From Octopus sinensis (taxonomy: Eukaryota): DNA of 64,000 bases. The DNA is taken from the NCBI RefSeq assembly GCF_006345805.1, contig NC_042997.1:31000001-31064000 (forward strand), in the 5' to 3' direction. Shown piece after piece: positions 20,082 to 23,214 of the stretch. The position numbers were made by a program, and so were the translations under genes. The notes beneath the pieces are model-generated. The model worked only from the letters and a program-made list of their open reading frames with translations, ran no database searches and was not told the origin of the DNA. Numbering within the stretch: the first letter of the stretch is position 1; each line of letters opens with the position of its first letter.

Positions 20082-20522
20082 TGTGTGTGGATGGACTAAA
20101 TTTATGTATGTGTATGCTGTGTTTACTGTAAGTGTCTGCAGCACATTTATTTGTCGATGATGAAGTCTCCGACATATTTCTATATCCTTCAAAGATGGCG
20201 TAGCTTCAGGTAGGTCTTGATCGAATAGACACAATCAAAGGCGTCTCCAACCATAGCAATACAGTCATTTTGTTTATCGAGTTCTGAATTTTTTTTATGG
20301 CGGTACAGTAAGACTTCAGTCAAGATTTGGCACTATTTTTGCTCCTTTTTAATTGTTGTTGTATGTTCATTGTTGTTTCGCTCCAGGACATTCCAGATCG
20401 AGCAGACACAAACTTCTGTAACCTTCGGTTCTATATTTAAGAGATGAGGAATTATGCACGTTATTTACATTATTTACATTATTTACATTCGACGGATATT
20501 TGTCCTCATCTTGTTTGTTGTT

Positions 20523-20568
20523 AACACAACGTTTCGGCTGATATACCCTCCAGCCTTCTTCAGGTGTC
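20523..20568 (-). ncRNA. Minimal type I hammerhead motif
   Basis: GACAC-CTGAAGA-A-GGCTG-GAGGGTATAT-CAGCC-GAAAC-GTT-GTGTT; loopless palindromic stem III (AACGTT). Confidence 0.8.
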
Positions 20569-20615
20569 TTGGGAAAATTTCGAACCTGGGTTCTCATTCC
20601 TAAAGTATTTTCCGA

Positions 20616-20683
<68 letters not shown>

Positions 20684-20684
<1 letters not shown>

Positions 20685-22717
20685 TTTGTTTTTCATCTTT
20701 CAAATTTGCTTCCATTTCTTGCCGGGTGTCTTCCCGACTCCTAGGGCAAAGAAACTCATAGTATACATTGGTAGGCCATTAAACCAAACTCAATAGTTCG
20801 TTCATTTAAAAAAATTTTTTTTTTTTTAAGTTAAATCAAAATACATGAGCAGCAACAGTTCTCACATCGACAATGCTCTTCTCAATACGTGATGTACCAG
20901 TTAAGACAATCTTTTGCACTTCTTGCAGGGATGGTAAGGCAGGGATCATTCTCATATAATTTTCGGTTCCCTTCTTGATCATTCCTAGTGCTCCTACGAT
21001 CACTGGTATTGTAACCGCCTTGAGATGCCACATTTTCTCAATTTCAATGAGTAGGTCTTTATATTTTCTGAGCTTGCCAAACTCTTTCGCTGAGATATTA
21101 TGATCACAGGGGATGCTCATGTCGATCAATAAGCAAACTTTATTGTTTTGGTCTTTCACAACAATATCTGGTTTATTGGCCTTGATGGTTCGGTCTGTAT
21201 GTACTGGAAAGTCCCACAGAATGGTTACATTTTCTCCTTCAGTTACAACCTCAGGGTGGTGATTATACCACTTGTCGGCAGTTTTGATATTGTAATGCCG
21301 ACTTATTAGCCAGTGTAGATATTGGCCAACTCTGTCATGTCTTAATTTATACTCCACTGGAGCTAAGACTTTACATCCAGAGATTAGGTGGTCCACTGTT
21401 TCAATCATGTCGTTGCAGAATCGGCATTTTGGGTCTGCTCCATTTTTCATCACATTGGCCTGGTAGTTCCGGGTTAATAGGCTTTGATCTTGAGCAGCCA
21501 GGATGAAACCTTCACTCTCTGCTTTTAGCCCTGAGCTCCGTAGCCACTGATGGGTTTGCTTCTGGTCAACATCAGCTTGTTTGCTGCGGGTCACATATTT
21601 GCCGTGCTGAGGCTTCTCCTCCCACCTATCAGCCAATTGCTCGTGCGCTTTTTTCGTTGCCATTATTTTCACCTTCTTTGCAACAATAATTGCCGTACTT
21701 CCCTCGGGTTGTTCTGTTTGGGTATCCTGCACGAGATGAATAGCAAATTTTTTGCTTTCCCTTATGATAGAATGAAGCTTCTTTCGTCTCTCGTGATTTT
21801 CCACGAGCTTTAGCATCCAGTCATTCGATATTTCGAGATATTTGGCCAGTCCAATTGTGGTTGTTTTGTAAGCTAGTTCAAATTGGATCAGGCCTCGACC
21901 TCCTTGGGCTCTGGGAAGGTAAAGGCGATCTACGTCTGCCTTTGGGTGGTGCATCTTATTACAACTCAGCAGCTTGCGTATTTTTCTATCTATATTCTTT
22001 ACTTCACTCATATTCCAGTTCAACACATTGTAGCTATAAGTAACAACTGGAACTGCTAAGGAATTTATAGCTAACACCTTGTTACGTGCATTTAGTTCAG
22101 ATTTCAGGACTGCACGAACTCTCCTATAACATTCCTTCCTGATCTTCTCTTTCATGATTGCATGCTGAATACCAGAGCCTTCATTTATCCCTAAATATTT
22201 GTATGTTTGTTCTTGCTCAAGCTCTCTTATGACTGTGTCAACATCTAACACGACTGAATTTGTGGTCTTCACTTTCCCTTTCTGGAAAGTGGCACACTTC
22301 TCAAGTCCAAACTCCATCCCGATGTCATCGTTGAATGCTTTCACAGTGCGCAATAGGCCTTCAAGTTCATATAAAATAGATGGCTTATTATTTTATTGGC
22401 AATTTTATACCCATACCCTGTTGTGTTTAATTCACTTGTAAGGGGTATTAGGGCTATGCAGAATATTAAAGGTGAAAGTGAGTCACCTTGAAAATTCCAC
22501 AGTTGATGTTTATATTTTCTGAGGCAAGTACTCCATTAGAGTGGTATAATTGGAGATTCGTATTCCACAACGACATATTGTGCTTCAGGAAGTTTGAAAT
22601 CACAGGGGAAATTTTGAAGATGTCCAGCGATCTCATGATCCATGGATGCGGTATACTGTCGAAGGCCTTTTTATAGTCAATCCATGCGGTGCTGAGATTT
22701 CTGCGCTTGTTGTGACA
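20684..22717 (-). mobile_element. 5'-truncated R4/Dong-like non-LTR retrotransposon (RT + CCHC + restriction-like endonuclease) inserted in (TAA)n
   Basis: WIDYKKAFDSIPH and FQGDSLSPL RT motifs; ORF 20836-22353 has CRFC..ETVDHLISGC..RHD and KPDIV..LIDMSIP..KLRKY. Catalytic DD after LFYM is deleted at ~22368. (ATT)n lies on both sides. Confidence 0.93.
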
Positions 22718-22757
<40 letters not shown>

Positions 22758-22763
22758 ATTAAT

Positions 22764-22840
22764 CAGGTCACTGCCTGGAATCGAACTCAGAATCTTGGGG
22801 GTTAGTAGCCCGCGCTCTTAAACCACTACACCATATGCCC
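22764..22840 (-). promoter_or_regulatory. tRNA-derived SINE head (Pol III A/B boxes)
   Basis: Minus strand GGGCATATGGTGTAGTGGTTTAAGAGCGCGGGCTACTAACCCCCAAGATTCTGAGTTCGATTCCAGGCAGTGACC. Confidence 0.8.
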
Positions 22841-23214
22841 GTGGGCATATTGTCTCTGTATACTTCTATTTCTTTTTACCCATTGGTTTTTATTGTGATT
22901 TAGGTCCTTTGGAAACTTTTGTGAAAAAGGCTTGTCATCCTATATAACGAAAGGGTTAATGAATTAAAAAAAAAAAGGTATTATTGTGGTCGTACCTTGC
23001 TTAAATAATTTGAGACAATCACTTGTTGAAAGATAGAAAAAAAAAAAAAAAAAAAATAATAAAATAGAAAAACATGGACATCTTGGCTTGAATGTCTTCA
23101 AACAGGCTTTCTCAATCAGCGCCGGTCTGGGGTTAAATTACAATACAACAACAACAACATTAACAAGCGTTGTTCACACATATCTAATTAAAGCTTGTCA
23201 GGTAATGGGATAAT

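Follow-up and report, generated by a model that had tools for sequence, protein, structure and literature searches.

A repeat on the minus strand of the window (the whole 64,000-nucleotide stretch analyzed here, positions 31,000,001 to 31,064,000 of Octopus sinensis contig NC_042997.1) is best read as the solo pseudo-LTR of a Penelope/Poseidon-type element (PLE), with a 5' end that was captured from tRNA-Arg and likely serves as an internal Pol III-type promoter, and with a later split by a Dong-like LINE (probability about 0.8). Judged from its sequence, the pseudo-LTR is the 5' UTR plus the ORF start of the parent element. An earlier note had described the locus as a probable tRNA-headed, SINE-like element that carries a hammerhead ribozyme and is interrupted by a LINE. 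The head, (TAA)n tract, hammerhead and 9-nt repeats are all found in the window sequence at the coordinates that it gave, and the LINE is, as it proposed, a later arrival inserted into the TAA tract of the head-body unit.

The window copy, read 5' to 3' on the minus strand, opens with a hairpin (22833..22850) of a 4-bp GC stem, an AC center and, in this copy, an ATAT extension. The tRNA-like head (22840-22764) includes an A box (22833-22823) and a B box (22788-22777) and is followed by the 5' half of the (TAA)n tract (22761-22718), which is part of the element's 5' UTR, the later Dong/R4-like LINE insert (approximately 22717-20684) and the 3' half of the (TAA)n tract (20683-20618). The body comprises the first ~57 codons of the PLE ORF (20428..20597, ATG at 20597), the frame of which is open in the window copy. 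Within this ORF start are a minimal type I hammerhead (20568-20523), with a predicted cut after GUU between 20528 and 20527, three in-frame 9-nt repeats (20489-20463) and the Penelope 'tail' (20428..20457). The tail-less arms of head-to-head pairs end in the region of the 9-nt repeats, a putative inner RT start site, and the tail, which is on one arm only of such pairs, is associated with a putative outer RT start site. The window copy belongs to the solo stubs, has the tail and carries a few additional palindromic bases at its 5' end; its flanks include no clear target-site duplication, the best candidate being 6 bp.

The interrupting LINE is of the non-LTR type, 5'-truncated and frameshifted, with a single ORF for an RT, a zinc knuckle and a PD-D/E-type end. 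Its Pfam matches to RVT_1 (E 4e-5) and zf-RVT (E 1e-3) are both under the Pfam cut-off, it is up to 65% identical to RT proteins of ~1200 aa, and no solved structure was matched by its ORF. The insert is a candidate member of a Dong/R4-like clade, with which its domains and its TAA target agree. Neither the body nor the head has similarity to the insert. Dong elements are described to target TAA repeats (PMC3812793), and Dong-R4 elements as recently active in Octopus vulgaris (PMC13282606). A second Dong-like fragment is noted at another locus (L032), directly past the head and (TAA)n, with the body ~940 bp beyond.

The head and body form one mobile unit. The genome searched includes 2.72 Gb in 13,516 contigs, and the head-seeded and body-seeded searches each cover 30 loci fetched from the 40 best-scored candidates (L041-L044 are apparent duplicates). 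The body is within 200 bp of the head at 22/29 other head-seeded loci and within 1.3 kb at 24/29; reciprocally, the head is within 200 bp of the body at 16/29 other body-seeded loci and within 1.3 kb at 20/29. An unbiased sample of 78 evenly spaced 10-kb stretches (780 kb) holds six element loci, all six with head plus body and all six free of ORF sequence. Extrapolated from these six loci per 780 kb, the genome is estimated to carry ~21,000 loci (95% range 7,700-45,500). The earlier note had reasoned that an accidental juxtaposition would leave head and body unlinked elsewhere in the genome; instead, adjacency at other loci is the rule in both the head-seeded (22/29) and the unbiased (6/6) sets.

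The parent element is recognized from the flank upstream of the head. A sequence common to the loose ends of RNA and to L027, L035, L039 and L055 translates as the end of a GIY-YIG endonuclease, and in loci seeded with this endonuclease end the head is next in 27/30 and the body in 22/30 (seed included). Loci seeded with the 5' part of the ORF have the tail directly ahead of the ORF in 19/30 and a same-direction head upstream in 6/30, in a set that includes near-duplicates (L251-L254) and one locus under two names (L265/L278). A near full-length copy (L202) is ordered as inverted tail-less repeat, tail, RT plus endonuclease ORF, stop, head, TAA, body and tail. The general order of the unit is tRNA-like head, (TAA)n, ATG, hammerhead, 9-nt repeats, tail, the rest of the ORF, ~30 nt and the next head, with an ORF of roughly 850 codons that joins RT to GIY-YIG. 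The head is ~30 nt past the ORF stop and ahead of the next ATG, and the internal promoter of other PLEs occupies the equivalent place between ORF stop and next ATG (PMC8557442). At one locus (L244:1502-2402, element orientation), the sequence past a head and TAA tract is a truncated copy of this PLE, an arrangement that looks like insertion of the element into an AT-rich repeat of its own.

The body is coding sequence: the ATG is kept in 74/77 copies, the 9-nt repeat varies in frame in 46/49, and the body frame of L265 can be aligned, beginning at residue 11, with the N-terminus of P0004, an intact homolog of 847 aa (E 3e-34). Fragments of the ORF match RVT_1 (Pfam), 253 ORF homologs are found at E<=1e-10 (the best with 54-62% identity), and the endonuclease end aligns to an 836-aa protein of Anolis (E 1e-22). 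The decayed endonuclease fragment has no Pfam GIY-YIG match, and no intact ORF was found, the longest open stretch among 12 loci being 305 aa. As the copies are roughly 82-92% alike and no ORF is intact, the family looks old in its host genome. No relative was found in metagenome contigs. Summed contig depth is lowest for the ORF, intermediate for the head and highest for the body, a quantity that is no measure of copy number.

The element has the features that distinguish endonuclease-bearing (EN+) PLEs, namely an RT with a C-terminal GIY-YIG of the CCHH type (CxC and two His, read in decayed copies only), a pseudo-LTR from a partial tandem with the ORF start inside, a minimal type I hammerhead in the pseudo-LTR and an inverted, 5'-truncated copy with the tail at one end. 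An inverted truncated copy and a one-sided tail of 30-40 nt are hallmarks of PLEs, and the absence of an extra Zn-finger linker is a criterion of the Penelope/Poseidon clade (PMC8557442). No CX2-5CxxC is present between RT and endonuclease in the translations examined, and this missing linker points to the Penelope/Poseidon clade. Other GIY-YIG PLE families, obtained by a Pfam GIY-YIG search of the genome, were considered as partners of the head and body and rejected, with no meaningful match to either in 30 loci or 20 longer stretches. Two such families (L067, L068, L093, L094 and L095) have long open RT plus GIY-YIG frames (775-883 aa) and sense strands rich in T runs, and served as controls.

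The tRNA-like character that the earlier note assigned to the head is upheld by alignment, which indicates that the head derives from tRNA-Arg(ACG). The window head is identical to genomic tRNA-Arg(ACG) at 47/73 aligned bases and another head copy at 50/72; an alignment score of 54 compares with 27+/-4.5 (maximum 50) for 2000 shuffles, and the window head and second copy both outscore all 2000. A head-derived pattern matches 141 genomic sites, and nearly all of the 100 listed are within a tRNA array; the three loci scanned are tRNA-Arg(ACG) genes by ARAGORN. The A and B boxes are the majority state among head copies. ARAGORN calls no tRNA in the window, and Rfam provides no tRNA or hammerhead match in the window, in five loci at E<=5 or in one 241-nt copy at E<=10. 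A tandem array of ~95 tRNA-Arg(ACG)-type genes with a period of ~206 bp is located at G000:C2:3121912-3157893 (L283-L300), and ARAGORN calls nine of these in L290.

The 5' ends of the copies pile up 6 nt before tRNA +1, a position that is likely a transcription start or an RT stop. Among position-ordered loci with intact head starts, 19/29 begin at this point and 10/29 extend ~15-490 nt into the ORF side. Exact head starts number 1440 genome-wide (298 with the exact 7-nt ORF-side flank, 340 with a palindromic junction), counts in which some sites are scored on both strands and from which heads cut further inside, common and seen at 5/6 random loci, are excluded. As about two-thirds of intact heads begin just before the head, most copies are solo stubs.

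The window hammerhead includes a stem I of 5 bp, CUGAAGA, one extra A, a stem II of 5-6 bp and GAAAC-GUU. Its helix III is 2 bp, loopless and palindromic (dimer type), which makes closure within one molecule impossible; thus, the hammerhead of the earlier note is present at 20523-20568, but 'well-formed' is too strong a term for it. The 5' core is intact in at least 54/69 copies, while the 3' core is exact in 19/57, with most of the others carrying CpG-type changes. Minimum-energy folding recovers stems I and II, and cofolding of two copies gives no dimeric hammerhead, a form that such programs handle poorly. The unstranded RNA-seq lists no pile of starts or ends and no cleavage ends, which standard libraries are not designed to reveal. 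Minimal hammerheads of metazoan PLEs, as described in PMC4209133, are inactive as monomers and weakly active as dimers, and share with the octopus motif the extra base between 9 and 10.1, G10.1-C11.1, the palindromic 15.2-16.2, a short helix I, a helix III without loop and a mainly solo, dispersed occurrence; the ribozyme itself, known here from sequence alone, is without difference from these. The octopus motif is accordingly classed, on its predicted secondary structure, as the minimal dimer-type Penelope form rather than a free-standing ribozyme. Cutting would likely require a dimer or the help of a protein, and cleavage is probably dispensable for insertion. Other hammerhead-like motifs with different stems are noted at L095, L110, L140, L146 and L069, some next to other GIY-YIG PLE families, with L095 and L146 of one shared family; a CUGAUGA...CGAAAC motif at window position 52066 (plus strand) is unrelated to the tRNA-headed element.

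The anatomy of the insertions is most apparent in head-to-head pairs. The final segment (tail) is on one arm in 23/26 pairs and on both arms in 0/26; the remaining three were scored for neither arm, and two of these reach the end by BLAST. The inverted arm ends at body positions 138-163 in 24/25 pairs and the other arm at ~192-196, such that the tail extends ~35-55 nt past the inner arm ends. Outer flanks have a direct-repeat score of at least 8 in 18/25 pairs, compared to 1.7% of mismatched pairs. In the Anolis element PAc, the tail spans the distance from one internal RT start site to another, and nicking and extension are described for each of the two target strands (PMC11167929). A single fold-back of one tail-primed cDNA was considered as the sole origin of the inverted arms and rejected, since the junction center relative to the tail is opposite to the fold-back prediction in 9/12 scored arms; two cDNAs are instead favored.

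A mechanism is proposed in which transcription begins ~6 nt ahead of the head and proceeds across the ORF and into the following pseudo-LTR, so that the RNA would carry two sets of RT start sites. As observed in vitro for Anolis PAc, the element protein would nick both target strands, and reverse transcription would begin inside the ORF start at two sites ~35-45 nt apart. Use of the sites in the first pseudo-LTR would generate head and body only, a solo SINE-like stub with a sharp 5' end, while priming at the second, downstream pseudo-LTR would generate ORF-bearing, 5'-truncated copies. Two cDNAs, one per nicked strand, may be joined head to head, often via the 5' hairpin after a short fold-back, and this joining would account for the inversion of one arm, for a tail on one side only and for a target-site duplication of roughly 8-14 bp. 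By this route, one and the same coding element is likely the source of thousands of SINE-like stubs as well.

The unit is SINE-like in outcome. It shares with tRNA-derived SINEs a tRNA-derived head with A and B boxes and lacks two of their defining properties: the body is an ORF start and the head is part of an ORF-bearing unit, so that the unit is neither non-coding nor separate, and the 3' end is not LINE-shared or A-rich but coincides with PLE tail sites. The PLE properties that could be checked are, by contrast, present. It is doubtful, although worth weighing, that an independent tRNA-headed SINE has borrowed a PLE 3'-end signal and spread in trans, with the ORF-linked form as parent and most stubs descended from stubs. 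Such a SINE would agree with the lack of ORF sequence at 6/6 random loci and with ~7/30 GT-centered heads (the form expected only at head-to-head junctions) that have no adjoining inverted head, as if junction arms were re-transcribed. However, one GT head among the 30 (L310) is linked to the ORF (Fisher P 0.09), such that a GT master or a hairpin-loop flip explains these heads too; both diagnostic variants tested are found in ORF-linked and solo copies alike; and internal priming yields solo stubs without a separate master. A chance meeting of a head with a PLE end at a common microsatellite has next to no probability: the (TAA)n tract, a known insertion target, is indeed flanked by both, but their linkage in 22/29, 6/6 and 27/30 loci refutes an accident. 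Quite improbable, too, is a cycle related to Sm-alpha or retrozymes, in which tandem units are transcribed, self-cleaved to monomers or circles and reverse-transcribed by a LINE such as Dong. The same parts, a promoter and a type I hammerhead, are described for those elements (PMC6765202), and a Dong-like LINE resides in the TAA tract of the window copy and of L032. Against this, no head-to-tail array of the short unit is evident in BLAST maps of the fetched loci read by eye (with occasional same-direction fragments, e.g., L027), the copies end at tail sites and not at the cut site, the body and head are without similarity to the LINE, and the body is PLE coding sequence. The comparison of the earlier note to a self-cleaving, stand-alone SINE of the Sm-alpha type thus finds no support, as the body is the first ~57 PLE codons, the head is directly behind the ORF 3' end in 27/30 loci, the hammerhead is the minimal PLE form, and the copies are dispersed or head-to-head rather than in head-to-tail arrays.

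The ORF sense strand has no TTTT in the 2371-nt column majority or in two long copies (L201, L202), and decayed ORF copies (67 kb) have 15 runs of at least four T, none fixed and present in at most 3/27 copies at any site. In two other PLE families of similar T content, each of three ORFs has 9-13 TTTT; the Dong ORF is also TTTT-poor (1-2). The deficit has a P of 0.017-0.027 (L202) or 0.01-0.17 (L201) by base or dinucleotide shuffles and of 0.10 when synonymous codons are shuffled, and the use of Phe codons does not differ significantly (P 0.17); as a sign of Pol III transcription, the deficit is suggestive only. TTTT is within 10 nt downstream in 7/8 tRNA-Arg genes inspected. It is also ahead of the hammerhead in 15/78 copies, including the window copy (20577-20574), where this run and the LINE insert make a hammerhead-bearing Pol III transcript of the locus unlikely. 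The RNA libraries are unstranded, and about three-quarters of the reads continue into unlike sequence. No RNA record was listed as a holder of the unit, which says nothing about its expression. That the head works as a Pol III promoter, if only for the short RNA, has somewhat better than even odds, the 'self-transcribing' character proposed in the earlier note is plausible, and a full-length element RNA read by Pol III would be the minority expectation.

A tRNA gene may have been captured as a promoter and TTTT purged from the 2.6-kb sense strand for full-length Pol III RNA, with internal priming to give re-transcribable and re-insertable stubs, so that SINE and Penelope driver would reside in one unit, from which elements of the Sm-alpha type may have originated; this scenario is speculative. 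Slightly more credible, yet short of an even chance, is a head that persists as a relic tRNA pseudogene or SINE in the UTR of an element transcribed by Pol II, with the 5' pile-up due to RT stall and fold-back at the hairpin. The cloverleaf is indeed broken and without Rfam or ARAGORN match, uncapped Pol III RNA would serve poorly as a message, and the TTTT deficit falls short of significance when codons are taken into account; however, a relic does not readily account for A and B boxes as the majority state, for 5' ends that lie 6 nt upstream of tRNA +1, the start position of Pol III, or for the lack of a fixed TTTT over 2.3 kb (at most 3/27 copies at any site). A relic head also agrees with the pseudo-LTRs of Penelope and Chlamys, which have an internal promoter with an intron (PMC8557442).

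As the solo pseudo-LTR of a Penelope/Poseidon-type element, the unit is without description in the literature searched, with Repbase, Dfam and subscription journals outside that search. Ohshima and Okada (1994) reportedly described octopus tRNA-derived retroposons (families OK, OR1 and OR2) of tRNA-Arg origin; these may represent the short unit described here under the name of a SINE. With the present assignment, a very abundant 'SINE' (~21,000 loci) becomes the tip of a Penelope element and provides a large natural data set for an open question, the origin of the inverted and tailed insertions of PLEs. If the head works as a Pol III promoter, the element would represent a coding retroelement under the control of a tRNA promoter and would offer a direct path by which a PLE gives rise to a SINE. 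Other repeats of the window include two tandem dimers of a 181-184 bp repeat (6238-6609 and 8012-8376), apparently of one family and in opposite orientation, and a different repeat on the plus strand (19500-19740) with an initial B-box-like GGTTCGAA motif, just past an (AT)n tract.

Among known systems, the schistosome Sm-alpha and Sj-alpha elements (PMC6765202, PMC2770079) are similar in having a type I hammerhead downstream of a tRNA-related Pol III promoter and more than 10,000 copies, but differ in being often tandem and non-coding, with in vitro cleavage shown and no attached PLE ORF described in the available text of these sources. Non-LTR retrozymes (bioRxiv 10.64898/2026.07.22.740005) and the non-autonomous elements of Chlamys (PMC8557442) are, like the octopus stubs, short relatives of PLE pseudo-LTRs and proposed users of PLE enzymes; by contrast, they form head-to-tail arrays, and the available text of the two sources makes no mention of a tRNA head. 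A close counterpart is PAc of Anolis, a Penelope/Poseidon PLE with one RT plus C-terminal GIY-YIG ORF, a pseudo-LTR and a hammerhead that overlaps the ORF start, where two RT start sites also delimit an optional tail of 30-40 nt (PMC11167929). Compared to PAc as described there, the octopus pseudo-LTR opens with a tRNA-Arg-derived A/B-box head and (TAA)n, and most octopus copies end sharply at this head.
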